Shown one piece after another: positions 2,043-16,529 of a stretch of DNA of 64,000 bases (its first letter is position 1; every line of letters begins with the position of its first letter). Both the position numbers and the translations under genes were made by a program. This stretch comes from Candidatus Aminicenantes bacterium (GTDB taxonomy: Bacteria > Acidobacteriota > Aminicenantia > Aminicenantales > JAFGBC01). The notes under the pieces were generated by a model that saw nothing but the letters and a program-made list of their open reading frames with translations, was not told the origin of the DNA and searched no databases. The stretch is from NCBI GenBank assembly GCA_963702005.1, contig OY969696.1:3008001-3072000 (forward strand), in the 5' to 3' direction.

Positions 2043-2927
2043 ATGGAAAACGCTACAGAACTTCTGATGAGCCATAAGTCGAGCCTCCTCCATGTCCACG
2101 CGGCCGTCGTATTGTTCGGGCTGGCCGGGCTGTTCGGGAAATGGCTCGCGCTCCCCCCGACTCTCATCGTCCTGGGCCGGGTCGTGTTCGGGAGCTTGGC
2201 GTTGGCCGTCGTCCTCCTCGTCACCGGCCAAGGATTCCGGGTTCGCACCGGCCAGGACGCGCTCTTATTTCTCCTTCAAGGTTTTATCCTCGCCCTTCAC
2301 TGGGTTCTGTTCTTTCGATCCATCCAGATCTCCTCAGTAGCCGTCGGGCTCCTATCCTACTCGAGTTTCCCGGTTTTTACGGTCCTCCTGGAGCCGGCCG
2401 TTTTTAAGGAGCGCCTGGACCGCCTCAACATTCTGATGGCGGGAATGTGCCTGGGCGGCATCCTGCTCATCGTCCCCCGCTTCAACCTCTCCGACGCGAC
2501 CGTGCGCGGACTGGGCTACGGCCTGGGAGCCGGCTTGACTTTCACGATACTGACCCTCATCAACAGGTTCCAGACGTCTCGTTACGGGAGCCTGGAAATA
2601 GCGCTCGGCCAGGACTTGGCGGCCGTTCTCTTTCTCAGCCCTTTTCTGCTGACTCCGCGTCCCGTATTCTCGGCCCGGACTCTTCTGCTCCTTGCCCTCC
2701 TGGGCGTATTCTGCACCGCTCTGGCCCACACCCTTTTCATAGGATCCATGAGGCGGATCAAGGCTCAAACGGCGGCCATCATCAGCTCATTGGAGCCGGT
2801 CTACGGAATGGCTGCGGCCGCCTTCCTTCTCGGAGAGAGATGGCCCCTCCGCACGATCCTGGGAGGGGCCGTTATTCTCGGGACGACGCTGATCGTGAGC
2901 CGGCGGGCCCGGGCGCGCGGCGCCTGA
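2043..2927 (+). CDS. DMT/EamA family transporter (start may be 2067)
   Basis: About 10 hydrophobic segments in two EamA-like repeats; ISSLEPVYG. Confidence 0.9.
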   Translation: MENATELLMSHKSSLLHVHAAVVLFGLAGLFGKWLALPPTLIVLGRVVFGSLALAVVLLVTGQGFRVRTGQDALLFLLQGFILALHWVLFFRSIQISSVAVGLLSYSSFPVFTVLLEPAVFKERLDRLNILMAGMCLGGILLIVPRFNLSDATVRGLGYGLGAGLTFTILTLINRFQTSRYGSLEIALGQDLAAVLFLSPFLLTPRPVFSARTLLLLALLGVFCTALAHTLFIGSMRRIKAQTAAIISSLEPVYGMAAAAFLLGERWPLRTILGGAVILGTTLIVSRRARARGA

Positions 2928-2941
2928 GCGCGCCGTCGGCT

Positions 2942-4090
2942 TCAGTCCTTTTTAAGCTTCCGCTTCTTGACCTTATCCTCTTCGGCTTTATGCCGTTTGT
3001 CGAGCTCCTCTTTCTCGGCTTCGTGGCGCTTCTTGAGCTCGACGACCTTGTCCTGGATTTCCTTCTCGATTTTCTGCTTCTCCGGCTCGCTGGGCGCCTT
3101 CTTGACGTCTTCTTCGACCTTCCTCCTCATGAGGCCGAGCTCTTCCTCTTGGCTCCTCTCGAGAAGGCGGGTTTCGTCCCGCTGGTCCTCCTTGAGCTCG
3201 TCCTCCTCGGAGAGGAGGACTTTCCGGTCGCCGCGCAGAGGCCGGTTTCTGATCTCTTGACCCGCTTCTTCCTTGCTGATGACGCGCCGCGGCTTGGCCT
3301 GGTCGTTCTTGAGGAGCTCGGGGCGGTAGATCTCGACCTCGCGCGGGCCGAGCCGGGCCTGTCCGGGCTGCCGGGCGTCCCTCAAGTCGTACTTGACGAC
3401 TTCGTTCCGGGTCGCGCGCCGGATCTGGTCGATATCGATGCCCTCGTTCACGATCCGGCTGTTGCGATAGACGATGTTCGTCTTGATGACGGTATAGTGA
3501 ATGATCGTGATGTTCCGCTCATAAGGAAGGACGTAGCGTCCGAGGTCGGCATCGAGGAAATAGCGGCCGTCGATGAAGAGCCAGTAATAATCCGGGACGT
3601 CGTCCACGTAAATCATGCCGCCGCGCCAGGCCGCGCCCGGGGGAAGGGGCGCCCATCCGTAATAGAGATCGCCCCAGCGCCAGGCGACCCAGGCCGGCCC
3701 CCAAACCGTGTCGGGAACCCAGAACCAGCCCATGTCACGGTCCCAGCCCCAACGGCCGTAGTGGAAGGGGATCCAGCCCCACTCGAAGGCCGAGATCCAG
3801 GTCCAGCCATAATCGGTCCAGACCCAGCGGCCGTGGGTATAGGGACGCCAGCGATAGGGAACGCCCCGCGGAACCCAGACGTTGCCGAAGGGCGCGTTCC
3901 AAACCCAATCGCCGTACTCCGAGAGATAATCGTAGAAATAGGAGATGTCACGGTTGCGGCCGTAGCTGTAATCCTCGCGGTCCCGAGAGGTCGCCCGCTG
4001 GGGACCGGAGTAGTCGTCCCTGGGGACATAGATGACGCAGCCCGCCAGGAACAGGACAAGGATGACGGCGATCCAGATCATGCGTTTCAT
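2942..4090 (-). CDS. Lipoprotein with Trp/Tyr/Gly-rich DUF6600-like domain and charged coiled-coil tail
   Basis: Lipobox LAGC; YDYLSEYGDWVW...WRPYTHGRWVWTDYGWTW; E/K-rich C-terminus. Confidence 0.8.
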   Translation of the reverse strand: MKRMIWIAVILVLFLAGCVIYVPRDDYSGPQRATSRDREDYSYGRNRDISYFYDYLSEYGDWVWNAPFGNVWVPRGVPYRWRPYTHGRWVWTDYGWTWISAFEWGWIPFHYGRWGWDRDMGWFWVPDTVWGPAWVAWRWGDLYYGWAPLPPGAAWRGGMIYVDDVPDYYWLFIDGRYFLDADLGRYVLPYERNITIIHYTVIKTNIVYRNSRIVNEGIDIDQIRRATRNEVVKYDLRDARQPGQARLGPREVEIYRPELLKNDQAKPRRVISKEEAGQEIRNRPLRGDRKVLLSEEDELKEDQRDETRLLERSQEEELGLMRRKVEEDVKKAPSEPEKQKIEKEIQDKVVELKKRHEAEKEELDKRHKAEEDKVKKRKLKKD

Positions 4091-4144
4091 GGCCTTGTGC
4101 CTCCCTGCTTATCGATTCTCATAGACTTCACAATTTATTATATA

Positions 4145-4160
4145 GCAAAAGCCATGCCAA
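4145..4160 (-). promoter_or_regulatory. Sigma-54 (-24/-12) promoter
   Basis: TTGGCATGGCTTTTGC on minus strand, ~55 bp upstream of the ATG at 4090. Confidence 0.7.
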
Positions 4161-4284
4161 ATGATCTAGGGGAAGAATTCAGGGGAGGAAGAGACACGGA
4201 ACCCGGCGCTGTCCTCCTTGGAGGACAGCCAGCTGTCCGCACGGCCACAGAATGCCCGGACGCTTTTTTATCGAACCGCTATCG

Positions 4285-5493
4285 TCAGGCCGCAAGGTCC
4301 TTGAAGACCTTTTTAATCCGCTTGAAGGCCCAGTTGAGGTCCTTCTCGGAAATGATGAGCGGGGGCGCGAAGCGGATGACGTGGTCGTGAGTCTCTTTGC
4401 AGAGCAGCCCCTCGTTCTTGAAGGCTTCACAGAAGCGGCGGGCGCCGCCGGCCTCGGGATGAAGCTCGATCCCGATCAGCAGGCCCCGGCCCCGGACTTC
4501 CTTGATGTGTTTGCTCTTGATGGTCTTGAGCTTCTCCATGAAGTAGGCGCCCTGGGCGGCCGCCCTGGCGACGAGATTCTCCTCCTGGATGACCCGGATC
4601 GCCTCGCGGGCGACAGCGCAGGCCAGGGGATTCCCGCCGAAGGTCGAGCCGTGCTCGCCCGGCTTTAAGACGCCCAGGATCTCCCGCGTCGAGCAGACGG
4701 CCGAGATCGGGATACAGCCGCCGCCCAGCGATTTCCCGATGACGACCATGTCGGGCTTAACCTCTTCATACTCGCAGGCGAAGAGCTTCCCGACCCGGCC
4801 CAGGCCGGTCTGAATCTCGTCGGCGATGAACAGGACATTGTGCTTGGTACAGATGTCCCGGACGGCCTTGAGGTAGCCGGCGGGCGGAATGAGGATTCCG
4901 GCCTCAGCCTGGATGGGCTCAACGATGATGGCCGCCGTGTTGGGAGTGATGGCCGCCTCGAAGGCCGCCGCATCTCCGAAGGGGATGATCTTGAATCCCG
5001 GCGTAAACGGCCCGAAGTCCCGGCGATAGAGGGGCTCGGTCGAGAAGCTGATGAGGGAGACGGTCCGGCCGTGGAAGTTGTTCGCGCAGGCGATGATTTC
5101 GGCCTGGTCCTGTGGAACGCCCTTCTTCTGGTAGGCCCATTTGCGGGCCGTCTTGACCGCCGTCTCGACGGCTTCGGCGCCCGAGTTCATGGGCAGCATC
5201 ATCTCGAACCCGGTCAGGTCGCAGAGCTCCTTGTCGAGGAACGGGAGTTGGTCGTTCCGGAAGGCGCGCGAAGTCAGGGTGATTCGCTTGGCCTGCTGGA
5301 CGAGGGCCTTGATGATCCTGGGATGACAGTGGCCCTGGTTGAGGGCCGAATAGGAGCTCAGGAAGTCGAGATACTTCCGACCTTCGACGTCCCAGACCCA
5401 AATGCCTTTCGACTGGCTGATGACAACGTCCAGGGGATGATAGTTATGAGCCCCGTATAGGTCCTCGAGAGTGATCAGGTCTTTGCTGTCCAT
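4285..5493 (-). CDS. rocD: Ornithine--oxo-acid aminotransferase
   Basis: YGAHNYHPL, NSGAEAVE, NFHGRT, DEIQTGLGR, GKSLGGG, HGSTFGGNPLACA. Confidence 0.95.
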   Translation of the reverse strand: MDSKDLITLEDLYGAHNYHPLDVVISQSKGIWVWDVEGRKYLDFLSSYSALNQGHCHPRIIKALVQQAKRITLTSRAFRNDQLPFLDKELCDLTGFEMMLPMNSGAEAVETAVKTARKWAYQKKGVPQDQAEIIACANNFHGRTVSLISFSTEPLYRRDFGPFTPGFKIIPFGDAAAFEAAITPNTAAIIVEPIQAEAGILIPPAGYLKAVRDICTKHNVLFIADEIQTGLGRVGKLFACEYEEVKPDMVVIGKSLGGGCIPISAVCSTREILGVLKPGEHGSTFGGNPLACAVAREAIRVIQEENLVARAAAQGAYFMEKLKTIKSKHIKEVRGRGLLIGIELHPEAGGARRFCEAFKNEGLLCKETHDHVIRFAPPLIISEKDLNWAFKRIKKVFKDLAA

Positions 5494-5911: not shown

Positions 5912-6964
5912 CTTCACCCCAGCGCCTCTCGCTATATGGATATGGATGATATCCTTGAGGAGGGCGGCGGCCGCGCCGCGCGGGTCGGACTTGCCGCCGC
6001 TGACGGTTACCGCCCCCATCGTGTCCGTCGTGAAGGTAATGCCCTTGCTCGTGTCCCGTACCCCGAAAAGCGGATGTTCCGGCTCCAGGACGGCCGGGCC
6101 GACCCTGAGCGTCCAGCCGCTTCCCGCCTCGGCCTTTGAGCAGCTGCCCAAGAGCTTGACGGTCCTACCCTGCCCGGCCACGGCGCGAATGACGGTCTCG
6201 CTCTCCGGGCCGATCCCGTCGACCCGGACTTCCCCGAGGTCGAAAGCCGTCTCGAGCACGGCATTGGCGATGAGGACGAGCTTGCAGGCCGTGTCCCAGC
6301 CCCCTACGTCGAGAGACGGGTCCGGCTCGGCGATGCCCTTGGCTTGCGCCTCTTCAACGGCGCGGCCGTAGCTCAAGCCCTCTTCCATCCTGGTCAGGAT
6401 GTAGTTTGAGGTTCCGTTGAGAACCCCCTCGATTTTCAAGACCTCGGCTCCGGCCAGCGACATGACCCCGACATCCAGCGTCGGCAATGCGGCGGCCGTC
6501 GCAGCGCTGTAGCGGATCTCGACTCCGGCCCGCCGGGCCGCTTCCTTGAGACCGGTATAATCCCGTACCAACGGCCCCTTGCCCGCCGTCGCGACGTTCC
6601 AGCCCTTGGCCAGGGCTTCGCGGATGATGCCCAGGCCCGGCTCTCCGCTCCGGATGGACGAGGGCGTGCAATCCACGAGCACTCCGGGCCTTCCCTTTCC
6701 CAAGACATCCGTAAGCGTGGTCCCCTTCGCCCAAGCGCCGGGCCGGGCGGTCGGCTCCTCCGCCTCCGCGGCCAAGGAAGCGCCGTCCAAGCCTCCCTGG
6801 GAATAGAGTATGCCGCTCTTCCTGACGATGGCGACCAGCCTCAATCGAAGTCCATAGCGGGACCGCAGCGGCGCCGCTTTCTCGGCCGCGATCCGGGCAA
6901 AGGCCCTGCCGACGTGGCCGAAGCCGGCCAGAATGATCGCGACGTCCTTATCGTTTTCGGTCAT
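5873..6964 (-). CDS. hom: Homoserine dehydrogenase (no ACT domain)
   Basis: GFGHVG, ATAGKGP, EGVLNGTSNYIL, GIAEPDPSLDVGGWDTACK. Confidence 0.92.
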   Translation of the reverse strand: MTENDKDVAIILAGFGHVGRAFARIAAEKAAPLRSRYGLRLRLVAIVRKSGILYSQGGLDGASLAAEAEEPTARPGAWAKGTTLTDVLGKGRPGVLVDCTPSSIRSGEPGLGIIREALAKGWNVATAGKGPLVRDYTGLKEAARRAGVEIRYSAATAAALPTLDVGVMSLAGAEVLKIEGVLNGTSNYILTRMEEGLSYGRAVEEAQAKGIAEPDPSLDVGGWDTACKLVLIANAVLETAFDLGEVRVDGIGPESETVIRAVAGQGRTVKLLGSCSKAEAGSGWTLRVGPAVLEPEHPLFGVRDTSKGITFTTDTMGAVTVSGGKSDPRGAAAALLKDIIHIHIARGAGVKRPYAGSIRHSIS

Positions 6965-8354
6965 GGATCGTTTCCCTGTCGCTCTTCCCCCGAGCCAGCG
7001 AGGCGAAGACCCCCAAGAAGCAAAGAAAGGCGAAGACGATGAAGGCGACTCTCAGGCTGACCAGGAACCGGCCGTAGAAGGCCGGGGTGATCCGGGCTTG
7101 GCCGATGGCGACCGAAAACAGCATCATGACGATCGCCAGACTCAGCATCTGCCCCACCAAGCGCATCGTCCCCAGCGTCGCCGAGGCGACTCCATAATGC
7201 TTTTTCTCGACGGAGCACATGACGGCGTTCGTGTTCGGAGACGAGAACAGAGCGAACCCGAAGCCGACCAGCAGCAGGCCGGCGACGATGGAGGCGAGCG
7301 CCGTGCCTTCCGTCACGAAGGCGAAAACAAGAAGGCCGAGGCTCGACAGGGCCATGCCCGCCGAGGCCAGGATGCGCGGGTCCCTACGGTCGGAGAGCTT
7401 CCCGGCCAAGGGAGAAAAAGCGGCCATGACGACGGGTTGCGCGACCAGGACCAGGCCCGCGGCCTGGGGGCTCATCCCCTTGATATATTGGAGATAGAGG
7501 CTCACCAGGAAGCTCAAAGCCGACGTGGCGCAGTAGTTTATGAGGGCGGCCAGGTTGGAAAAGCCGTAAACCCGGTTCCGGATCATGAGCCGGACGTCGA
7601 ATACGGGCATGGCGACCCTTTTTTCCAACACGACGAAGACCACCGCGCCGACTGTTCCGGCCAGGGTCATTCCGATTCCCAGGCCGGTAGGAAGCCGGGA
7701 AAACCCGAACATGAGGGCCAGGAGCGTCAAGGCAAAGAAAGCCGACCCGGCCAGGTCGAACGTCTCGCCGCGCGCCTCGGCCCACTCCCCTTTGAAATGC
7801 CAGGCCACCAGCGCGATGATCAGGAGGCCGATCGGAACCTGGGTCCAGAATAAGCTCCGCCAGCCGAAATACTGGGTCAGGATGCCTCCGACGACCGGAC
7901 CGAGCGACAAGCCCAAATAGACGGCCGCCGTGTTGATTCCCAGCGCCCGGCCTCGTTCGCCGGGCGGGAAGACCGAGGTCAGGAGCGCGACCGCCGTCCC
8001 GAAAATCATGGCCCCCCCCAGGCCTTGGCCGACCCGGAAGGCGATCAGGATCGCGGCCGAGGGCGATAGGGCCAGAACCGCCGAGGCGACCGTATAGATC
8101 ACGATGCCCCAGGCGAAGATTTTTTTGCGGCCGATGAGATCGGCGAGCCGGCCCATCGGCACCAGAGATATGGCGGCGGCAAGTATATAAGCGGAAGCCA
8201 CCCAGCCCAGCCGGACGGCGTTCAGGGAAAATTCCCGTCCTATCGAAGGGAGGGCCAGGTTCAGGGACGAGCCCATGAAGGGCGTCAGAAACGAAGCCAA
8301 GGCCGTAATGATGAGGGCCGAGCGCCGGGTCAGAGCCAGGGCCGGCGACGAAAC
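6948..8354 (-). CDS. MFS transporter, DHA2/EmrB-like 14-TM (start codon uncertain)
   Basis: GRLADLIGRKK motif A, GPVVGG, SSPNTNAVM; the ORF-track extension to 8432 overlaps tRNA-Ser and is not credible. Confidence 0.88.
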   Translation of the reverse strand, partial: VSSPALALTRRSALIITALASFLTPFMGSSLNLALPSIGREFSLNAVRLGWVASAYILAAAISLVPMGRLADLIGRKKIFAWGIVIYTVASAVLALSPSAAILIAFRVGQGLGGAMIFGTAVALLTSVFPPGERGRALGINTAAVYLGLSLGPVVGGILTQYFGWRSLFWTQVPIGLLIIALVAWHFKGEWAEARGETFDLAGSAFFALTLLALMFGFSRLPTGLGIGMTLAGTVGAVVFVVLEKRVAMPVFDVRLMIRNRVYGFSNLAALINYCATSALSFLVSLYLQYIKGMSPQAAGLVLVAQPVVMAAFSPLAGKLSDRRDPRILASAGMALSSLGLLVFAFVTEGTALASIVAGLLLVGFGFALFSSPNTNAVMCSVEKKHYGVASATLGTMRLVGQMLSLAIVMMLFSVAIGQARITPAFYGRFLVSLRVAFIVFAFLCFLGVFASLARGKSDRETIHDRKR

Positions 8355-9080: not shown

Positions 9081-10286
9081 ATGGACCAACTTGAATGCCT
9101 CTTTTGCAGCAAGGCTTTCGTCTACGATCCCTTCTCTCCTTTCTGCCCGGACTGCCGAGAACCGCTCCTCGTCGCCTCGCCCAAAACGCCGTGCGCCTTT
9201 CATCCCGATAAAAGCCTGTCGCTCGAACGTTTCCGGGAATTCCTCCCCCTCCCCGAGATCGACCCCGGCCTCAGCCTGGGCGAAGGCTCGACTCCCCTCC
9301 TCGCCCTCGGCCGTCTCTCGAAGCGCTTCGAACTCCCCGCCCTCTACGCCAAGAACGAGACCATGAATCCGACCCAAAGCTTTAAGGATCGGGGAACGGC
9401 CGTCGCCGTCCAAAACGCGCGGCGGCTGGGATTCAAGCGGATCGGGACGGTTTCAACCGGCAACATGGCGGCGTCGACGGCCGCCTACGGGGCGCGGGCC
9501 GGGCTGGAGACTTTCGTCCTGCTTAAGGACGGGACGCCCGAAGAAAACATCCTGATGGCCGGGGTTCATCATCCTCATCTGCTCGTCATCGAGGGCGATT
9601 ATGGGCGGCTCTTCTATGAAAGCCTGTCCCTGGGCCGCAAGCATCGGATTTTCTTCATGAACTCGATCGACCCCTTCCGCATCGAAGGCTACAAGCTTAC
9701 CGGCTTCGAGATCTTCCTTCAGCTGGGAGGCCGGGTCCCCGATTACCTCGTTGTGCCCCTCAGCTCGGGCGGGCATCTCGTCGGGCTTCTCAAATCCTTC
9801 CTGGAGCTCAAAGAACTGGGGTTCGCGGACCGGATCCCCGTCGTCGTCGGCGTTCAGGCCGAGGGTTGCGCTCCTCTGGCCCGGGCCTTTGCGGCCGGAG
9901 CGTCCCGTTTCAGCGTCTTCGAAAATCCGCGGACGATCGCCCACGCTATTTCCAATCCCCATCCCCCGGCCGGGGCTCTCGTCCTGAAGATGATGAAGGA
10001 ACGGGGAGGGCTCATCACCGCGGTTTCCGACCGGGACATGCTGGAAGCCCAGGAGCTCCTCGCCGCGGATGGCCTGTTCTGTCAGCCCGACTCGGCGACG
10101 ACGCTGGCGGCGCTCATTAAGCTCGGCCGGACCAAGGCTCTCGACCCCGACGGCGCGGCCGTCCTCGTCATCACGGGAAGCGGCCTCAAGAATCTCAAGG
10201 TCTTGGAAGCTTCGCGTCTGCCGCGGCGGAGGGTGACGCTGGCGGGATTGGCGGGCGCCTTGGCCGGAAGGACGGCCGAGGTTTAA
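9081..10286 (+). CDS. thrC: Threonine synthase
   Basis: N-terminal CxxC...CxxC, SLGEGSTP, NPTQSFKDRG, STGNMAAS, ITGSGLK. Confidence 0.9.
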   Translation: MDQLECLFCSKAFVYDPFSPFCPDCREPLLVASPKTPCAFHPDKSLSLERFREFLPLPEIDPGLSLGEGSTPLLALGRLSKRFELPALYAKNETMNPTQSFKDRGTAVAVQNARRLGFKRIGTVSTGNMAASTAAYGARAGLETFVLLKDGTPEENILMAGVHHPHLLVIEGDYGRLFYESLSLGRKHRIFFMNSIDPFRIEGYKLTGFEIFLQLGGRVPDYLVVPLSSGGHLVGLLKSFLELKELGFADRIPVVVGVQAEGCAPLARAFAAGASRFSVFENPRTIAHAISNPHPPAGALVLKMMKERGGLITAVSDRDMLEAQELLAADGLFCQPDSATTLAALIKLGRTKALDPDGAAVLVITGSGLKNLKVLEASRLPRRRVTLAGLAGALAGRTAEV

Positions 10287-12100
10287 AGGAGGGGCTCGCC
10301 GGCCTTCGAGCCGGCGTTATCGTCCGGAAGCGGCCCTTTCTGCTGGAGGATGAAGCGTACCTTCTCCTCGAACTCGCGGGCTTGGACGGGCATGAAGACG
10401 ACCAGGTCGTAGCTCAGCGTGTCAAGACGGTCCTGGTCGATTTTTTCAAACTCCTTGCGGACCAGGACGATGCTCATTTGGGACCAACGGGGATCCGTCT
10501 TGATCTTTTCGCAGAGATCATAAGCGCCCGCCTTGGGGTTGTTGAGGTCCAGGATCACGGCGTCCGGCCGGAAACGGTCCATCTCGGCCGGAGCTTCCTC
10601 CCCTTCGTTGATGATGGAGAGCTCGAAATCCTTGTGCCCGAAAGCCATCCGGACGACCTTTTGAGTCAACCCGTTCGGCGTGACGAGAAGAAGCCTGTAA
10701 CGAGAGAGGAGAGTCGGCGTGGGCTCGGCAGCGGGCTCGAAGCTGGGCTCGGGGCCGGGCTCGGGAGTCCGACTCGGCGCGGGCTCGGACGGGAGCTCGA
10801 AATCCCATCGGAACTCGGGCTGGGAAAGAGGCTCCGGCTCGGGCGCCGGCCGGGCCGGCGGGGCGGGCCGCTTGGCCTCCAGGATCTCCAGAGCCGGGAA
10901 CGCGGTTCGCAGGGCCTCGGTTTTGCCCTCCGGGCGAGCCGGCTCCGCGACAGGCCGAGCCGTCTCCCGGACGGGGCCTCCGAACCAATCCGTCATGAGG
11001 CTGCCCAAGTCGTCGGCCGCATAGTGAGACCGGCCGTCTTCGTCCAGGAACCTCTCCAAGTCCTCCCTGAGGTCTTCGACCTTCTGGTGCCTGTTCCGGG
11101 GTTCGTACTCGAGGGCCTTGAGAATGGTCCTTTTCAGCGAATCGGGGGCTTCGAAACTCCGGGGGATGACCGGGATGACCTGACCGAGAAGGATCTTGCG
11201 GAACACGGCCGGATCCAATGTCTTGGGGAATATCGGTTGTCCGGTCGCCATTTCATACAGCAAGGAGCCGATCGCGTAGATGTCGGTACGGCCGTCGACC
11301 GGCTCGCCCCGAGCCTGCTGGGGAGAGAGGTAAGAGATCTTGTTGCGGAACGACGCGGGAACGGCCTGATAAAGCCTGAGGGCCGTCCGGAACAGGCTGA
11401 AATCCGTCAGCAGGACGTCCCCCTGAGGAGTCAGCAGGACGTTCGAGGGCGCGATGTTCCCATGAATGATGCCGAGCGGGATGCCGCCGGGTCCGGGAGT
11501 CGCGAAAGCCGACTCCAAAGCCAGGCAGACCTGGGTCCCGATATAGGCGAGCGCGGGAAATGGAATCTGGCGTTTGCGGGTCTTGGCGACGTTCAGGATC
11601 GCCCCGGCGTCCGTTCCTTCGATAAAATCGAAGACGAGAAAGCCGTACTCGTTGAGCTTCCCGAAGTCGAGCATGGGAACGATGTTGGGATGGGACAGCC
11701 TGGCCAGCAGCCTGGCTTCCTCGAGGAAGACGGCCATGACGTTCTCTTTCTTGAACTGGAGGCGGATCCGTTTGAGGACGCAGGGCCGTCCGTTCTGGCC
11801 TTCGGCCCGTTTGGCTTTGAAGGTTTCGGCCAAGCCGTCGTAGCCCAGCTTTTCGACCAGGATATAGCGGCCGAATTCGGGCAGGAACTCCGGCCCGCCA
11901 TCGAGCCCGTCCGGGGATCCCGGAGGCGAGGACCGGTTTCGCCCCTTCCGTTCCAGGTCCGAGAGGATGTCGGTCAGCTTGGACTCGATCTCATCGGAGA
12001 CGCCTTTGTCCTTCTTCCGGGAGACGTGCCCATCGCGGAGGACATCCGCCTTGAGCTCGTCGATGAGCTGATTCACCTTTTTGTCGATATCTTTCATCAT
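10283..12100 (-). CDS. Ser/Thr kinase-like (probable pseudokinase) with Pro-rich linker and C-terminal receiver domain
   Basis: EEARLLARLSHPNIV, IIHGNIAPSNVLL, TDFSL, YLSPQQARG, DGRTDIYAIG; C-terminal RPDAVILDLNNPKAGAYDLCEKIK. Confidence 0.88.
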   Translation of the reverse strand: MMKDIDKKVNQLIDELKADVLRDGHVSRKKDKGVSDEIESKLTDILSDLERKGRNRSSPPGSPDGLDGGPEFLPEFGRYILVEKLGYDGLAETFKAKRAEGQNGRPCVLKRIRLQFKKENVMAVFLEEARLLARLSHPNIVPMLDFGKLNEYGFLVFDFIEGTDAGAILNVAKTRKRQIPFPALAYIGTQVCLALESAFATPGPGGIPLGIIHGNIAPSNVLLTPQGDVLLTDFSLFRTALRLYQAVPASFRNKISYLSPQQARGEPVDGRTDIYAIGSLLYEMATGQPIFPKTLDPAVFRKILLGQVIPVIPRSFEAPDSLKRTILKALEYEPRNRHQKVEDLREDLERFLDEDGRSHYAADDLGSLMTDWFGGPVRETARPVAEPARPEGKTEALRTAFPALEILEAKRPAPPARPAPEPEPLSQPEFRWDFELPSEPAPSRTPEPGPEPSFEPAAEPTPTLLSRYRLLLVTPNGLTQKVVRMAFGHKDFELSIINEGEEAPAEMDRFRPDAVILDLNNPKAGAYDLCEKIKTDPRWSQMSIVLVRKEFEKIDQDRLDTLSYDLVVFMPVQAREFEEKVRFILQQKGPLPDDNAGSKAGEPLL

Positions 12101-12672
12101 GAGCCGCGCTTATCCATTTCGCGCCGGATCGCCTCCCCCACGATCCGCGTCAATTCGGGATAAAGACGCTCGAGGACGCGGGCGCTCAGCGACTCCAAGC
12201 CCTCCTCGGGCGGTCCTGAGACGGCGGCGGGCATGTCCGCCGGAGACGCGCTGGGGAGCGAAGCCGGCGGCCCCGCCTGGGGAACGGGCTGGCCTTCGGC
12301 CGGAATGGCGGGCGGGGGAGGAACCTCCGGCTCGATGCGGATGATATCGGATGCCGCCGACCGGGCCGCTCCGGCGCCGGGGGCGAGGACCATCAGGCAG
12401 AAATCCTGGGCGTTGGCCACGAAGAAGCTCAAGGTGATCCGGAGCTTCCGGTCCTCGGTCCGGAGCGAAACCTCCTTGATCTTCTCCAGCCCCAAGGTTT
12501 CTTGGACGCTGTGGATCGTCTGCTGGAGCGGGAAGGCGAAGGCGGACAGGACCTCGGGATCGTACATTTCCCCCCGGGCGTCGACGACCAGGCCGTCTCT
12601 GTCGACGACGACGGCCTGATGGAGCTTCCCGTCCCGAATCATGTCTTCGACCGTCTTGGAGATGAATTTCAC
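12097..12672 (-). CDS. Roadblock/LC7-like protein with Pro-rich linker and C-terminal helix
   Basis: AVVVDRDGLVV...PEVLSA Roadblock pattern; tail LSARVLERLYPELTRIVGEAIRREMDK; ATGA overlaps at both ends. Confidence 0.75.
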   Translation of the reverse strand: MKFISKTVEDMIRDGKLHQAVVVDRDGLVVDARGEMYDPEVLSAFAFPLQQTIHSVQETLGLEKIKEVSLRTEDRKLRITLSFFVANAQDFCLMVLAPGAGAARSAASDIIRIEPEVPPPPAIPAEGQPVPQAGPPASLPSASPADMPAAVSGPPEEGLESLSARVLERLYPELTRIVGEAIRREMDKRGS

Positions 12673-13247
12673 AGCCTCGCCTCCTGTTCCAGACGCTCCA
12701 GCAAACGCCGGACCATGACGATGAAGGACTCGCGGAGGTTGATCCCCTTGAGGGCGCTAACCTCGAAGGCCGGGTAGCCGTTGAGCCCGAGCAGCTTGCC
12801 CAGTTCGTCGGCCGGGTAAGTGTCCTCGAGGTCGATTTTATTGTAGAGGACGATGATCTCGGACTGGCGGAGCTTTTCGATGTTATCGAGGTAACGGTTG
12901 AATTCGACGACGAATTCCCGGTTGTGCTCGAGCTCCTTCTTCTGACAGTCGACGACGAAGAAGATGCCGTCGGCGTCCTCGAACAGCATCCGGCGCGTGC
13001 TGAGATAGTAGTCCTGGCCGGTGGCCGTGAACAGGCGGACGACGATGTAGGTGCTGATCTGGATCGGGGTGAAATCGAAAAGGAGGGTCTGGCCGAACGA
13101 GGTTTCGATGGACTTGATCTCGCTCGTCATCTTCATGTCCTTGGGGATGACGTTCTGGTACAGCCACCTCAGGCATGTCGTCTTCCCGGCCAAGGCCGTG
13201 CCGAAGAAGAGGATCTTGAAGTAGATCTTGCTGCCGTAGGTCTTCAC
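12669..13247 (-). CDS. MglA-like small GTPase
   Basis: GTG start overlapping the upstream stop (GTGA); G1 GTALAGKTT, TLLFDF, TATGQDYY, DADGIFFVVD, NKID, SAL. Confidence 0.9.
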   Translation of the reverse strand: MKTYGSKIYFKILFFGTALAGKTTCLRWLYQNVIPKDMKMTSEIKSIETSFGQTLLFDFTPIQISTYIVVRLFTATGQDYYLSTRRMLFEDADGIFFVVDCQKKELEHNREFVVEFNRYLDNIEKLRQSEIIVLYNKIDLEDTYPADELGKLLGLNGYPAFEVSALKGINLRESFIVMVRRLLERLEQEARL

Positions 13248-13702
13248 GAGCCTTCCTTCTCGAACCTGGACAGGATGTCGGCGATGCTCCGGCTGTCGGG
13301 AAGCCGGAACTTCATCTCCTTGACCATCTCCTCGCGGATTTCCATGGTGTCCTGCATGATCTTGGTGATGGCGTCGATGGCCCGCTTGGCCTCGAGCCGG
13401 ATCATCCCGATGTAGGCGTTCTTGCCGGCGATGATCGTCAGGAGACCCCGCGGCATCCGGTTCTGGCAAAGCTTGAGGTCCCCGTACTCGACGATGATGC
13501 TGTCGAGTTTTTGCATGAGCTCCGTTCCGACCTGGGCGTAGGAGTTGTAGCAGGCGGCCAATAGGGCCCCCAGGTCCTCCGATTTCATGTCGAACTGGCC
13601 GGCGACCTCTATCGGAATGCCGTCGATGTCGATCAGGATGACCCCGACGACCTCGGGCACGCGCTTCATGATCCCGTCGATGATTTCTTTGATGTTGGCC
13701 AT
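13244..13702 (-). CDS. Roadblock/LC7 (MglB-like) protein
   Basis: VVGVILIDIDGIPI, EDLGALLA, SIIVEYG, IGMIRLEAKRA. Confidence 0.88.
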   Translation of the reverse strand: MANIKEIIDGIMKRVPEVVGVILIDIDGIPIEVAGQFDMKSEDLGALLAACYNSYAQVGTELMQKLDSIIVEYGDLKLCQNRMPRGLLTIIAGKNAYIGMIRLEAKRAIDAITKIMQDTMEIREEMVKEMKFRLPDSRSIADILSRFEKEGS

Positions 13703-13720
13703 GATTCCTCTTTCCGCGCG

Positions 13721-14800
13721 TCAGGGGGCCGGAGCTTTCCCGGCGGTCTTCAACAACTGATCCAGCGATTCCTCGACTTTGAAGCGGACCATGAGCGGGT
13801 TGGGTCCGGCTTCCAGGACAAATCCAAAGACGATGGCGTGAACGCAGACAAGGATATTGACGTGTCTCGTGTTGATTTCGATGTACTTGAGGGGGCCTGA
13901 CCGTAGCGCCCCGCGCGGGATGCTCCCGACCGACTGGACGACGCGGAGGAAGTTTTGGGAGGGGAAGTTGATGTCCCGGTACTTCGCATAGCCGACCAGG
14001 TCCCCCCCGTCGAACAGGACAGCCAGGTAGAGCTCCTTGACGCTCGACATCTCCTTGAGAAACTCGACGATCTCGGGGACCGTTTCCCGGATATAGGGGG
14101 ATAGATTCATCCGCCGTTCCTTGGCCCCGATGGCCAGGATCTTGGCCAGGGTCCGCTCCCGGACGTTGAGCATCTCGGAGACATAGGACTGGGTCAGCGA
14201 GCCGGACGATTCGATCTCGTTGAGCATGGCCTGGAAGGCGAGGTGGACCTCGCTCTGCTTGAGCTGGACCTTGAACTCCTTGACCCCTTCGCTGTTGTCC
14301 CTCATCTCCTGGATGAGCCGCTGCTCAATGAAGAGATCCTCGGGAAGAGGGTCCAGGAAATACAGGGTCCCATCGGCGAAGGAAAAGACGTCCTTGACGC
14401 GGAGGGAGTCGTCCTCCCACTCCTCCCGGGTGTGGCTGGTCGTCGCCATCCAGCCGAGGGGAAGGACGGACAGGACGCTTTTCAGGATGGCGGGCTCGGC
14501 CGCGAAGTAGATGAGCTGAATCGGCGGAGCGCCCAACTCCTCTTCCGCGAAGGACAGCTCGAAAGCCTCCCGCTGGGCTTCCGGCTCCTTGGTCTCGATC
14601 AACTTGGCCCCCTTGATGTAGCGGGCGTCCTTGGGGATAGCGCCGCAGAGAACGAACGTCCGGTACTGGGGGATATTATACCTCCACAGCGATAAAAGGC
14701 TGTTGGCGGATTCGACGTTCGGGGCCTGGATGACGATCCGATTCCGATACCAGATGGCGGCCAGCAGGGCGGCTTCCCAATTCTCCTGGAGCTTGGTCAT
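13721..14800 (-). CDS. Hypothetical protein; possible DENN-like N-terminus, HTH-like middle, Roadblock/longin-like C-terminus
   Basis: 359-aa ORF translationally coupled in the operon; C-terminal LYLAVLFDGGDLVG...YIEINT...FGFVL...MVRFKVEE; domain calls are inference. Confidence 0.7.
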   Translation of the reverse strand: MTKLQENWEAALLAAIWYRNRIVIQAPNVESANSLLSLWRYNIPQYRTFVLCGAIPKDARYIKGAKLIETKEPEAQREAFELSFAEEELGAPPIQLIYFAAEPAILKSVLSVLPLGWMATTSHTREEWEDDSLRVKDVFSFADGTLYFLDPLPEDLFIEQRLIQEMRDNSEGVKEFKVQLKQSEVHLAFQAMLNEIESSGSLTQSYVSEMLNVRERTLAKILAIGAKERRMNLSPYIRETVPEIVEFLKEMSSVKELYLAVLFDGGDLVGYAKYRDINFPSQNFLRVVQSVGSIPRGALRSGPLKYIEINTRHVNILVCVHAIVFGFVLEAGPNPLMVRFKVEESLDQLLKTAGKAPAP

Positions 14801-15201
14801 GACCTTTCCTTCCCCGGCGCCGGGAGCATGAGGGCGTCGAAGATCTCCTCGAGGGCGGGCGTGACTTCCTTGATCAGGATCTTGGCCAGGCCGACGTTGA
14901 GCTTCTTCCGTCCCAGGAGAAGGACGTGAAAACCGCGGTCGGGATGCTTATGAATGAGGAGGATGCTTTCCTGCCATTCGACCTGCATCTGATTGAGGTC
15001 TGCGGCGCCGGCGCTGATCGCGACGGCATTGGCGGCATCGATGATATCGGCGATGGAGACCAGGACTTCGCTGGGCGGCGATCCTTCGAACTTCGAGAAG
15101 AGGAGCGTTCCGTCCGGGCCAAATAGGGCGAATCCCTCCTTGTCGGCCAGGTAAGAGAGACGCTCCAGGACGAAAGCCAGCTTGGGGCTTTGGATGATCA
15201 T
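14797..15201 (-). CDS. Roadblock/LC7-like protein
   Basis: GFALFGPDGTLL, LNQMQVEW, LNVGLAKILIKE; 134 aa. Confidence 0.78.
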   Translation of the reverse strand: MIIQSPKLAFVLERLSYLADKEGFALFGPDGTLLFSKFEGSPPSEVLVSIADIIDAANAVAISAGAADLNQMQVEWQESILLIHKHPDRGFHVLLLGRKKLNVGLAKILIKEVTPALEEIFDALMLPAPGKERS

Positions 15202-15684
15202 GGTTTGGTCCCGGCCGGTCCGGGAAGGCTCTTATGTCCCGTAATAATCACGATATCCGCCTTGAGCTCCGAGACTTCCATATCCTCCAGCCCGATCGTC
15301 CGGGAGGCGTCGAGAACGGTCCGGCAGCCTCTATCCCGGGCGAAGCCTAAAAGCGCCGGCGCATCGTTGACCGCTCCCGCTGCATTTGAAGCGTGATTGA
15401 GAACGGCCACCCGGGGAGTCCGCTTCTCGACGGCTTCCCGCCAGAAGATCCTCACGGACCCTGCCTTCGACGTTGCAGGGAACGATCTCCAGCTGAACGC
15501 CGTTCCCCGCGAACCGGTCAAGGGGCCTGAGGACCGAATTATGCTCCAAAGCCGTAGTCAAGACAAGGCCCTTCTCCGCCGCCACCTCCTCTGCCATGCC
15601 GGGGGGCTTGGGAAAAGACGTGGCGGCGTTATTCAGGTAGACGGGAGCGCGCTCGGGAACGGACTGAATCCCGTCCTCGCCCAA
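15198..15684 (-). pseudogene. Aminotransferase class V (cysteine desulfurase-like) pseudogene
   Basis: VYLNNAATSFPKP, internal deletion, LEHNSVLRPL, frameshift, then HASN...LDAS...TGHKSLPGPAGT, truncated after the PLP lysine. Confidence 0.85.
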
Positions 15685-15852
15685 CGCACGGCCTCCCTAA
15701 ACAAATAAAAAATAAATTTAAGTGCTCAGATCGTATCGTATTTATCCGCTCTGACGACGACGAATTCGCCGTAGGGATCACCCTTTTCGATGCCCTTGAC
15801 CTGCTTGGCCCGGAACGTGACAGCGGCCATTGTCCTTCTCATTTTGGGGGGA

Positions 15853-16224
15853 TCATCCCGTGAGGGCGTCCTCGAACTTGTCGACTATTTCAGGCAGGAT
15901 GACGTTGAGCAGGAGTCCGGTCGCGATCTTCTTGGTATCGACGAAAAGCCCCCACTGGTACCCGTCCATGGGGATGATCAGAAACATCTTCGAGTCCGCC
16001 AAATCAACGATGTAGTACCTGCCCAGGAGCGGGAAATTGCTCCCCTTCAAGGACTTCGTCAAAAAATTCGTGACCTGGTTGAAGAGGGCGCAGGCTTTGG
16101 GCTGGGAGTTGATTCCGTAAATGCTCTGCCCGTCCGCGGATGAATAGATATCCGTGGAGAGAATGCCGTCTCCCAGATCCTCCTTGAGCTTGTCGACCGC
16201 TTCTTTCATTTTCTTAATGTTCAT
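15853..16224 (-). CDS. Roadblock-like small protein
   Basis: 123 aa from MNIKKMKEAVDKLKEDLGDGILSTDIYSSADGQSI...TGLLLNVILPEIVDKF; helix-hairpin-helix-sheet-helix pattern. Confidence 0.7.
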   Translation of the reverse strand: MNIKKMKEAVDKLKEDLGDGILSTDIYSSADGQSIYGINSQPKACALFNQVTNFLTKSLKGSNFPLLGRYYIVDLADSKMFLIIPMDGYQWGLFVDTKKIATGLLLNVILPEIVDKFEDALTG

Positions 16225-16529
16225 AAGTTTCCACCCATATCTGTTCTCGGAAATCGCGCCTTGGACTTCGGAATTAGCGCTTCCTCGCCTTCGTTTCCAC
16301 CTCCTCAGCGCTGAAGTTCTTCGTTTCATCCATGAAAAAACGGCCTTTCATTGCTTCGCTCTTCTATTTTTGGGTCCCCGATCAAGGGGGTCAATCACCC
16401 CTCTCGGTGAATTCAGGGGTGAAATTCTCCTCTTTGCCGATGAGATTTCGACTCCGCCGGCATCCCCCTCCCTCCCCCGAACGTCTAACCCTTGGAAACC
16501 CGAAATCCGGGTTCGAGCCGGGTGCCTGA

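Follow-up and report, generated by a model that had tools for sequence, protein, structure and literature searches.

What kind of switch is formed by a small GTPase that is encoded among several Roadblock-like proteins and a kinase-like one? The question is raised by a locus of Candidatus Aminicenantes bacterium (GenBank assembly GCA_963702005.1), which lies in a stretch of 64,000 nucleotides (contig OY969696.1, positions 3,008,001 to 3,072,000) that is part of a 4.31-Mb single-contig genome and is called the window here. On its minus strand, from 10283 to 16329, a run of open reading frames (ORFs) is found, all in the same orientation. To our knowledge, most of what is known of bacterial small-GTPase switches comes from MglA with its single homodimeric Roadblock GTPase-activating protein (GAP) and from the actinobacterial conservons. 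We think, with a probability of about 0.6, that the conserved operon of this locus encodes a divergent MglA-type GTPase switch with regulators made from several different Roadblock domains, not from one MglB homodimer. The last gene of the operon encodes a phospho-signalling protein: most lineages have a Hanks kinase with a receiver there, one genus has a double receiver, and the window has a pseudokinase with a pseudo-receiver. The genes are the following, in window coordinates:

10283..12100, minus strand: PK_REC, a kinase and receiver protein of 605 amino acids (Pkinase 81.8 bits; Response_reg 22.3 bits, below the cut-off)
12097..12672, minus strand: Robl_Pro, a Roadblock/LC7 protein of 191 amino acids with a tail (Robl_LC7 27.2 bits)
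12669..13247, minus strand: a small GTPase of the MglA family, 192 amino acids (Arf, Ras and Gtr1_RagA models; MglA as best solved relatives)
13244..13702, minus strand: Robl_MP1, an MP1/LAMTOR3-like Roadblock protein of 152 amino acids (MAPKK1_Int 32.5 bits; Robl_LC7 22.7 bits)
13721..14800, minus strand: p359, the signature protein, 359 amino acids (structure models and fold searches; no Pfam family)
14797..15201, minus strand: p134, a divergent Roadblock-like protein of 134 amino acids, first gene of the conserved operon (Pfam matches of orthologues, profile match)
15198..15684, minus strand: a pseudogene of a class-V aminotransferase, cysteine-desulfurase-like (Aminotran_5 fragments)
15853..16224, minus strand: p123, a stand-alone Roadblock-like accessory neighbour of 123 amino acids (profile alignment to p359 relatives; Atlas match)

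The Pfam cut-offs that apply to these scores are 23 bits for Robl_LC7, 25 bits for MAPKK1_Int and 30.2 bits for Response_reg. The ORFs are placed as in the preliminary description of the locus, and the four overlaps of start and stop codons that it named are all real (ATGA at 12097-12100, GTGA at 12669-12672, GTGA at 13244-13247 and ATGA at 14797-14800); a fifth 4-bp overlap, ATGA at 15198-15201, joins the frame of the pseudogene to p134. Four starts are preceded by GGAGG- or GAAGGA-like sites. The start codon of the GTPase is the GTG at 13247; the mechanically called ORF begins further upstream, at a TTG. The genes of the operon are translationally coupled.

The core of the operon, in the order p134, p359, Robl_MP1, GTPase and tailed Roadblock, is found again in 9 of the 11 further distinct loci that encode a p359 homologue (G001:C171, G002:C304, G010, G023, G029, G034, L025, which is the same as L024, L026 and L027), and the clustering is not due to chance. 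Conservation of the gene order in other genomes, on which the preliminary description had made its proposal depend, is thus given by the comparison of gene neighbourhoods. The two loci without the core are a contig of 2.8 kb (G039) and one with a lone p359 paralogue (G001:C102). The latter belongs to a genome of the same genus (L017 2352-3416), is 33% identical, and stands beside genes for a DAGK/YegS-type lipid kinase and an acyltransferase, with no GTPase or Roadblock neighbour. Robl_MP1 is the best conserved gene, with 62-72% identity in distant loci, followed by the GTPase (55-59%), p359 (36-44%), the tailed Roadblock (25-41%) and p134 (21-27%), a ranking that fits a direct pairing of Robl_MP1 with the GTPase. 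Additional Roadblock-like genes stand upstream of the operon in L025 (two) and in L027 (one).

The p359 family is small: a search of 5.8 billion clusters gave 18 proteins, and among 1.84 billion there were 41 representatives. A KSB1 bacterium is given as the source of one relative, and the operon may reach beyond the phylum, as L026 and L027 are filed under the label 'uncultured Eubacteriales'. The same locus is filed twice, as L024 and L025 with identical match statistics for every gene, once under a metagenome-assembled genome (MAG) of a Methanofastidiosia archaeon and once under one of an Aminicenantia bacterium. Probably one of the two was binned wrongly, and archaea have no copy of their own here. 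In L025, a protein with a receiver and an HD domain (HD_5) is encoded at 2430-3545, upstream of the operon, and in L027 a PAS-GAF-PAS sensor protein at 11447-13021, downstream of the kinase.

The GTPase is a single domain of 192 amino acids, without a fused Roadblock, and by its sequence it is a divergent member of the MglA family. Besides the Pfam scores (Arf 44.8, Ras 37.4 and Gtr1_RagA 32.1 bits), the best solved relatives are MglA chains from Thermus (3t12_A, E 1.6e-20) and Myxococcus (6h17_A, E 2.1e-19), with Rab and Arf structures trailing at E 1.5e-6 or weaker; together with the intact G1 and G4 motifs, this bears out the MglA-like identity that had been proposed. The G1 motif GTALAGKTT is invariant, and so are the N, K and D of the G4 motif NKxD in nine of nine orthologues (NKID here). 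The G3 motif is TATGQ here and T[AT]TGQ in all nine, with Thr in the place of the usual Asp and the catalytic Gln kept. According to the available text of the classification by Wuichet and Sogaard-Andersen (2014, PMC4316618), the G3 consensus is TVPGQ in Group 1 and GTPGQ in Groups 2-5, neither of which fits the operon GTPase exactly, and Group 1 is defined by an essential intrinsic Arg next to the G2 Thr. This arginine finger is absent from the operon GTPase, in which a Gln aligns opposite to it, within an SFGQT motif that is present in nine of nine orthologues.

A second MglA paralogue is encoded in the same genome, outside the window (G000:C1:1507570-1508079; L002 1429-2289). It has 286 amino acids, is 33% identical, keeps the canonical arginine finger (ERT) and TVPGQ, and carries a charged C-terminal extension of about 90 amino acids; no Roadblock gene is visible beside it in the 3.5-kb locus.

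The presence of two such GTPases bears on the idea that the operon is a polarity or motility module of the Myxococcus type, in which the receiver protein with its Pro-rich linker would take the role of RomR and the extra Roadblocks that of MglC, for positioning a type IV pilus or a similar machine. An MglA-type GTPase with Roadblock partners is indeed encoded, the last gene gives a receiver with a Pro-rich linker, six genes for ATPases of the T2SSE family (PilB/PilT/GspE-type) are present in the genome, and the alpha/beta core of p359 resembles the cores of PilB/GspE-type ATPases. Moreover, the p123 family is fused to REC-PATAN (receiver and PATAN domains) in other genomes, and PATAN is linked to the pilus motor and to mglA/mglB in the available part of a preprint (10.1101/2021.06.11.447907). 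However, the separate canonical paralogue, with the arginine finger of Group 1 that the operon GTPase lacks, is the likelier polarity GTPase. The flanks of the operon encode a PALP enzyme, a deaminase, a major facilitator superfamily (MFS) transporter and an ATP-binding cassette (ABC) transporter but no motility proteins, and the system is missing from most relatives, with p359 in 8 of the 41 genomes of an order-level sample, own genome included. We consider a polarity module of this kind unlikely.

The reading that we prefer, a GTPase switch with several different Roadblock partners, depends on the identity of these partners. The five Roadblock-like domains that had been counted at the locus are all retained, two of them by Pfam, one by a confident structural model and two by transitive homology. 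Robl_MP1 has Asgard Roadblock3 as the best match of its profile in the PDB (9jue_D, E 0.0088), with MglB at E 0.16, and it is a candidate MglB-like GAP or platform subunit. In Robl_Pro, the score above the Robl_LC7 cut-off (28.2 bits in a scan of the whole genome) confirms the Roadblock identity proposed for the ORF at 12097. It is followed by a Pro/Ala-rich linker and a C-terminal helix, a tail that is conserved within the genus only, being present in G001 and G002 and absent in genus g9; a sequence-profile search of the PDB with this protein gave nothing.

The case for p134 comes from its relatives, since the protein itself matches no Pfam family. Orthologues in the same position match Robl_LC7 with 23.8 bits (L027), MAPKK1_Int with E 2.7e-4 (L025) and Robl_LC7 with E 0.0077 (L026), and two of nine homologues are named 'Roadblock/LC7/MglB family' by JGI. 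The p134 profile matches a canonical Roadblock of L025 (73 bits in Pfam) at E 6.9e-8, and its best PDB match is the Asgard Roadblock 9jue_D, with E 0.065 and an end-to-end alignment. In the Atlas, p134 lies near LAMTOR3 and Robl_LC7 clusters at 0.92-0.94. Comparison by hhalign of shallow alignments of p134 and p123 with two Pfam-positive Roadblocks gave E 0.04-0.16, no informative match was obtained by hhalign between p134 and distant p359 relatives, and members of the p123 and p134 families had only chance-level matches in Pfam. When Robl_LC7 was run over the whole genome at E <= 10, the two operon Roadblocks and two weak sites elsewhere were found, while p134, p123 and the C-terminus of p359 were not picked up. 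One of the weak sites (G000:C1:3165449-3165589; 18.9 bits, E 0.004) is in a frame of 608 amino acids about 93 kb past the end of the window. In a strain 90-95% similar (run X4), one base is missing near the 3' end of p134 (window 14840), which gives either an altered tail or a low-depth assembly error.

For p123, which matches no Pfam family and gave nothing in a sequence-profile search of the PDB, the evidence is of two kinds. It scores 0.95 to an Atlas cluster named 'putative Roadblock/LAMTOR2', and positions 36-99 of its profile align to about 275-338 of distant p359 relatives, inside their Roadblock domain, with E 3e-7 to 7e-6 in small databases; hhalign extends this alignment to 96 columns at P 0.024. 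In all, 24 homologues of p123 were found. The inclusion of p123 in the cluster by the preliminary description stands as regards its Roadblock-like nature, by transitive homology, and falls as regards a place in the core. It is missing from one locus of the same genus (L016), with no copy upstream of p134 in G001, it abuts p134 in G002, and its family is found in other genomes too: it is present in 9 of 301 genomes of a phylum sample, own genome included, while in a separate, overlapping phylum sample p359 was found only in G000 and G010. Therefore, p123 is an accessory neighbour and not a core component.

Proteins of 360-400 amino acids in other genomes carry the p123 domain at their C-terminus, together with Response_reg and DUF4388. 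The latter is the PATAN domain, and PATAN proteins interact with the pilus motor and are often encoded near mglA/mglB, according to the available part of the same preprint (10.1101/2021.06.11.447907). Proteins with a REC-PATAN-(p123 domain) order and 360-545 amino acids were seen in other Aminicenantia (L029 766-1872, L031 559-1872, L034 1495-2706, L035 1495-2586 and L030 272-1909), often as two paralogues 1.2-1.5 kb apart. This architecture seems worth a description of its own.

The signature protein p359 had been described as a protein ending in a Roadblock-like segment. Its C-terminal fold holds: residues 239-357 are modelled as alpha-beta-beta-alpha-beta-beta-beta-alpha and match Roadblock structures by Foldseek, LAMTOR2 at E 3e-5. 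What had been overlooked is a distinct and highly conserved N-terminal domain, residues 1-235, which is probably the key regulator. It is formed by a Walker-less P-loop-NTPase-like alpha/beta domain (1-155) and a helical part that ends in a winged-helix-like unit (157-235). The full-length model, from 18 sequences, has a predicted local distance difference test (pLDDT) value of 73.8, and the 235 N-terminal residues, modelled separately, reach 87.8. In an alignment of 50 sequences, with identities as low as 16%, five residues never vary (P44, R47, G53, W117 and E159), all of them in the N-terminal domain. No Pfam family is matched by p359 (E <= 0.1) or by 38 relatives (E <= 0.05; none above cut-off).

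The resemblance of the alpha/beta core to PilB/GspE-type ATPase cores does not make p359 one of them. The Walker A and Walker B motifs and the T2SSE model match that go with PilB, GspE and VirB11 are not found in it, and an active ATPase was ruled out, as Walker A is missing. In the N-terminal model, the matches that span the whole of 1-235 are DENN modules, and the structural match to DENN ties with that to bacterial secretion ATPases. In the available text of Zhang et al. (2012, PMC3521125), the DENN core is a minimal alpha/beta domain of the P-loop-NTPase kind that has no nucleotide-binding residues, and the all-alpha d-DENN comes after it; such a make-up would explain the tie. The same text relates longin to Roadblock by circular permutation.

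These matches lead to an alternative in which the operon is a bacterial counterpart of Rag/Ragulator/folliculin: p359 would be a DENN-like guanine nucleotide exchange factor (GEF) or GAP on a platform of several Roadblocks, with Roadblock replacing longin and the kinase as read-out. Besides the fold of p359, the central Roadblock, which matches the MP1/LAMTOR3-type Pfam model, goes in this direction, and an Asgard operon with a Roadblock-superfamily protein, a small GTPase and a DENN protein has been predicted, according to the available part of Liu et al. (2020, bioRxiv 10.1101/2020.10.19.343400). Nevertheless, the N-terminal model has no Foldseek match at E <= 1e-3, the Pfam models DENN (PF02141) and Folliculin_C (PF16692) match nothing in the genome even at E <= 10, and none of the 38 p359 relatives matches a DENN-type model. 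The domain order also differs, as the Roadblock of p359 is C-terminal and not N-terminal, and the GTPase is MglA-like, not Rag-like or Rab-like. We think that this counterpart is improbable and, because the DENN and Folliculin_C models match nothing in the genome, we call the N-terminus of p359 Walker-less P-loop-like rather than DENN. A prediction of the complex of p359, p134, the GTPase (as partner) and GTP scored 0.00, which speaks neither for nor against the binding of the GTPase.

At the other end of the operon, PK_REC begins with a charged region, which is followed by a Hanks-type kinase domain and, after a Pro-rich linker, by a receiver. Aligned to its homologues in L025-L027, the kinase is degenerate, with HGN for HRD, DFS for DFG and a broken Gly-rich loop, so that of the marks of an active Hanks kinase (Gly loop, Lys, HRD and DFG) only the Lys is kept. 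The receiver keeps the acceptor Asp and has TPN in the place of the acidic pair and MP for KP, by which the conserved Lys is lost; the set of residues of a phosphorylatable receiver (acidic pair, Asp and Lys) is therefore incomplete. The kinase of G002 is degenerate like that of the window (HGN, DFS/DFC, broken Gly loop, receiver below threshold). In contrast, the homologues of L025-L027 keep GxGxxG, VAxK, HRD and DFG, with 136-151 bits for Pkinase and 65-122 bits for Response_reg. Canonical receivers are present in L026, L027 and genus g9, and in the last a double-receiver protein without a kinase occupies the position of the kinase. The dead kinase that had been put at the output is thus real in this genome and is not a feature of the system: since L025-L027 keep intact kinase motifs and a canonical receiver, the decay is specific to the genus. 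On the basis of these motifs, the system is likely to be wired in general to phospho-signalling, and this genus to keep the protein as a scaffold after the loss of catalysis.

Another proposal is an anti-phage defence or conflict system in which kinase and GTPase would sense infection. Among the kinase models of PADLOC, PD-T4-6 (E 4.8e-44) and mad6 (E 5.9e-38) recognise the kinase domain, the distribution is patchy and rare, and the output module differs among lineages. Yet these matches concern the generic kinase domain only, and the other six proteins match nothing in PADLOC. The flanks are housekeeping genes, with no integrase, transposase or defence gene seen nearby and with a GC content that is unremarkable, and the kinase appears catalytically dead here while the other genes are all kept. 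A defence function is thus highly improbable, and it was rejected as PADLOC had matched a generic kinase domain alone.

A conservon-like signalling unit (Cvn/Mfp) has a similar list of parts, in that one operon unites an MglA-type GTPase with a kinase, a Roadblock and a protein that contains a winged-helix-like unit. In conservons, according to the available texts of PMC4316618 and PMC12236503, the kinase senses, and a Roadblock and a helix-turn-helix-like protein regulate the MglA-type GTPase; here, the Hanks kinase would replace the histidine kinase, p359 would replace CvnC and the GTPase would be the output. However, no histidine-kinase domain was detected in the operon proteins by Pfam and NCBIfam scans, in agreement with what had been noted at first, and DUF742 (CvnC, PF05331) matches nothing in the genome at E <= 10. 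Moreover, G4 is the canonical NKID and not the deviant Group-2 motif given in the available part of PMC4316618, there are four Roadblock domains instead of one, and the operon is outside Actinobacteria. Taken together, we find a conservon-like unit very unlikely.

For the multi-Roadblock GTPase switch, a mechanism can be proposed. Roadblock domains act as dimers, and the four Roadblock domains of the core would then probably make two heterodimers. One candidate is Robl_MP1 with the tailed Roadblock, the genes of which flank the GTPase gene, and the other is p134 with the C-terminus of p359, the genes of which overlap. The dimers might serve as a platform that binds the GTPase, as MglB2 does with MglA and Ragulator with the Rags. 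Being more conserved than the GTPase, Robl_MP1 is the likeliest direct partner of it, in the manner of MglB. Since the GTPase is without the intrinsic arginine of Group 1, hydrolysis or exchange probably needs a partner, for which the best candidate would be the N-terminal domain of p359, acting as a co-GAP or GEF and carrying the invariant R47. The kinase/receiver protein could couple the switch to phosphorylation, as input or as output, and in this genus it would be a scaffold only. We infer that the whole forms a hetero-oligomeric scaffold. Its cellular output could be polarity, motility, an envelope function or transcription via the winged-helix part.

Several points weigh against this proposal. 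The Roadblock pairings are guesses from gene order, R47 is put forward as the best candidate from its conservation alone, and p123 is the weakest case of the five Roadblock-like proteins. Moreover, not all p359 relatives are accompanied by a GTPase. Distant metagenome relatives (L042-L047), found with an alignment of a five-sequence subset as the query, have 25-35% identity to p359 and a GC content of 30-43%; no GTPase gene is seen in their contigs, which are 2.6-8.4 kb long and have p359 at the contig end in three cases, so that this absence carries little weight. Four of these six loci, in which p359 is followed by TPR, TonB_C/PEGA or p134-like genes, are to be counted with the paralogue of G001:C102 as p359 loci without a GTPase, so that the family is not strictly tied to the GTPase. 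Finally, a sample of 401 genomes from across the phylum yielded p359 in 2 of them, and a system so rare is unlikely to have a general role. In the same distant loci, a p134-like gene neighbours the p359 relative in L045 and L046, and four Pfam-positive Roadblock genes are directly upstream of p359 in L044, one of them fused to PATAN (DUF4388+Robl_LC7).

The 'decayed genes' that had been noticed between p123 and p134 are two Aminotran_5 fragments, overlapping and mutually out of frame (46.8 bits for 15198-15521 and E 0.034 for 15331-15684), which cover about positions 81-208 of the 371 of the profile and are truncated by p134. Contigs of related strains from other samples show indels of 1 nt and 11 nt, at 15445/15447 and after 15580, and such non-triplet changes are as expected of a pseudogene. 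In G002, p123 and p134 have no such fragments between them. In the distant, low-GC locus L042, an intact Aminotran_5 gene (4085-5227, 226 bits) occurs with a p123-like gene (1973-2365, 41% identity) and a p359 relative (5983-7001); the window has all three as well, its aminotransferase being decayed, and they may have been associated since an ancestor instead of having been brought together by a random insertion. An ORF of 38 codons on the minus strand (window 15726-15842), which follows p123 closely and precedes the aminotransferase fragments, has no match and may be a gene remnant.

The genes that flank the operon are unrelated to it, with the PALP enzyme converging on the operon end and the ABC transporter encoded as a pair, and the GC content is even across the region. 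A promoter/terminator scan gave 3 promoter-like sites against 1.1 expected, and fewer terminator-like sites than expected. The data sets that hold this stretch are DNA metagenomes from wetland and freshwater sediment only, with no RNA set listed.

We have compared the operon with the systems that share parts with it. The Myxococcus MglA/MglB/MglC/RomR/RomX/RomY module and the MglA/MglB pair of Thermus thermophilus also have an MglA-family GTPase, with Thr for Asp in G3 and the catalytic Gln, encoded beside Roadblocks, and the Myxococcus module includes a receiver-domain protein with a Pro-rich segment. The C-terminal helix of MglB is regulatory, and the linker and C-terminal helix of the tailed Roadblock recall it. 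On the other hand, the operon GTPase has a Gln in the place of the intrinsic arginine finger of Myxococcus and Thermus MglA, and four different Roadblock domains are in one operon here, whereas in Myxococcus MglB is homodimeric and MglC unlinked. The 359-amino-acid signature protein, the Hanks kinase fused to a receiver and the separate canonical MglA of the genome are further differences from the Myxococcus module; as for RomR and RomX, only a generic receiver domain was seen here, and no dedicated homology search was made.

Conservons (CvnA-D; Mfp) share with the operon a kinase, a Roadblock, a helix-turn-helix-like unit and an MglA-type GTPase, and there is no cognate DNA-binding response regulator in either. 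They differ in having a histidine kinase instead of a Hanks kinase, and the operon in its lack of DUF742, its canonical G4, its several Roadblocks and its phylum. PATAN (DUF4388) response regulators are related through the p123 domain, which is C-terminal to REC and DUF4388 in other genomes, and through the DUF4388+Robl_LC7 protein of the L044 array, but the operon of the window has no PATAN domain and p123 is stand-alone.

The Rag-Ragulator-folliculin system and the Asgard operon, as far as the latter is described in the available part of Liu et al., have in common with our operon several distinct Roadblocks around a small GTPase, one of them of the MP1/LAMTOR3 type by Pfam. In addition, p359 may resemble their large regulator in combining a Roadblock/longin-type domain, a P-loop-like alpha/beta domain free of nucleotide motifs and an all-alpha part. 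Unlike Rag, the GTPase here is MglA-like, has a single domain without a fused Roadblock, and scores lower with Gtr1_RagA than with Arf. No DENN/folliculin sequence match and no LAMTOR1-like anchor were found, the domain order is permuted, and in structure p359 matches bacterial secretion ATPases equally well. In concept, nevertheless, nothing comes closer than the operon of Roadblock, GTPase and DENN protein predicted in Asgard archaea, in so far as it is covered by the available part of that preprint (10.1101/2020.10.19.343400).

The preliminary description had recognised no precedent for this architecture, and no system of the same make-up is described in the literature consulted, in Pfam, in NCBIfam or in PADLOC, although the supplementary tables of MglA neighbourhoods of PMC4316618 could hold related loci. 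The available parts of PMC4316618, PMC3521125, 10.1101/2020.10.19.343400, PMC12290439 and 10.1101/2021.06.11.447907 contain no such bacterial architecture, and the known systems have one or two MglB per MglA in that of PMC4316618.

Thus, the operon would be a third conserved architecture of bacterial small-GTPase switch. With all its genes in about 5 kb, it would offer a compact system for studying the hetero-oligomeric Roadblock control of a GTPase, which is otherwise a matter of the eukaryotic Ragulator, and it poses the questions of where the missing catalytic arginine comes from and how a kinase turns into a scaffold by decay when its partners persist. If the N-terminus of p359 were DENN-like, it would bear on the origin of eukaryotic GTPase regulators, as DENN-type regulators would then be older than both eukaryotes and Asgard archaea, unless an exchange with bacteria had taken place. 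Compared with all these systems, the module of MglA and Roadblock is familiar, and what is new in the operon is its signature protein family, its multi-Roadblock make-up and its link to a Ser/Thr kinase.

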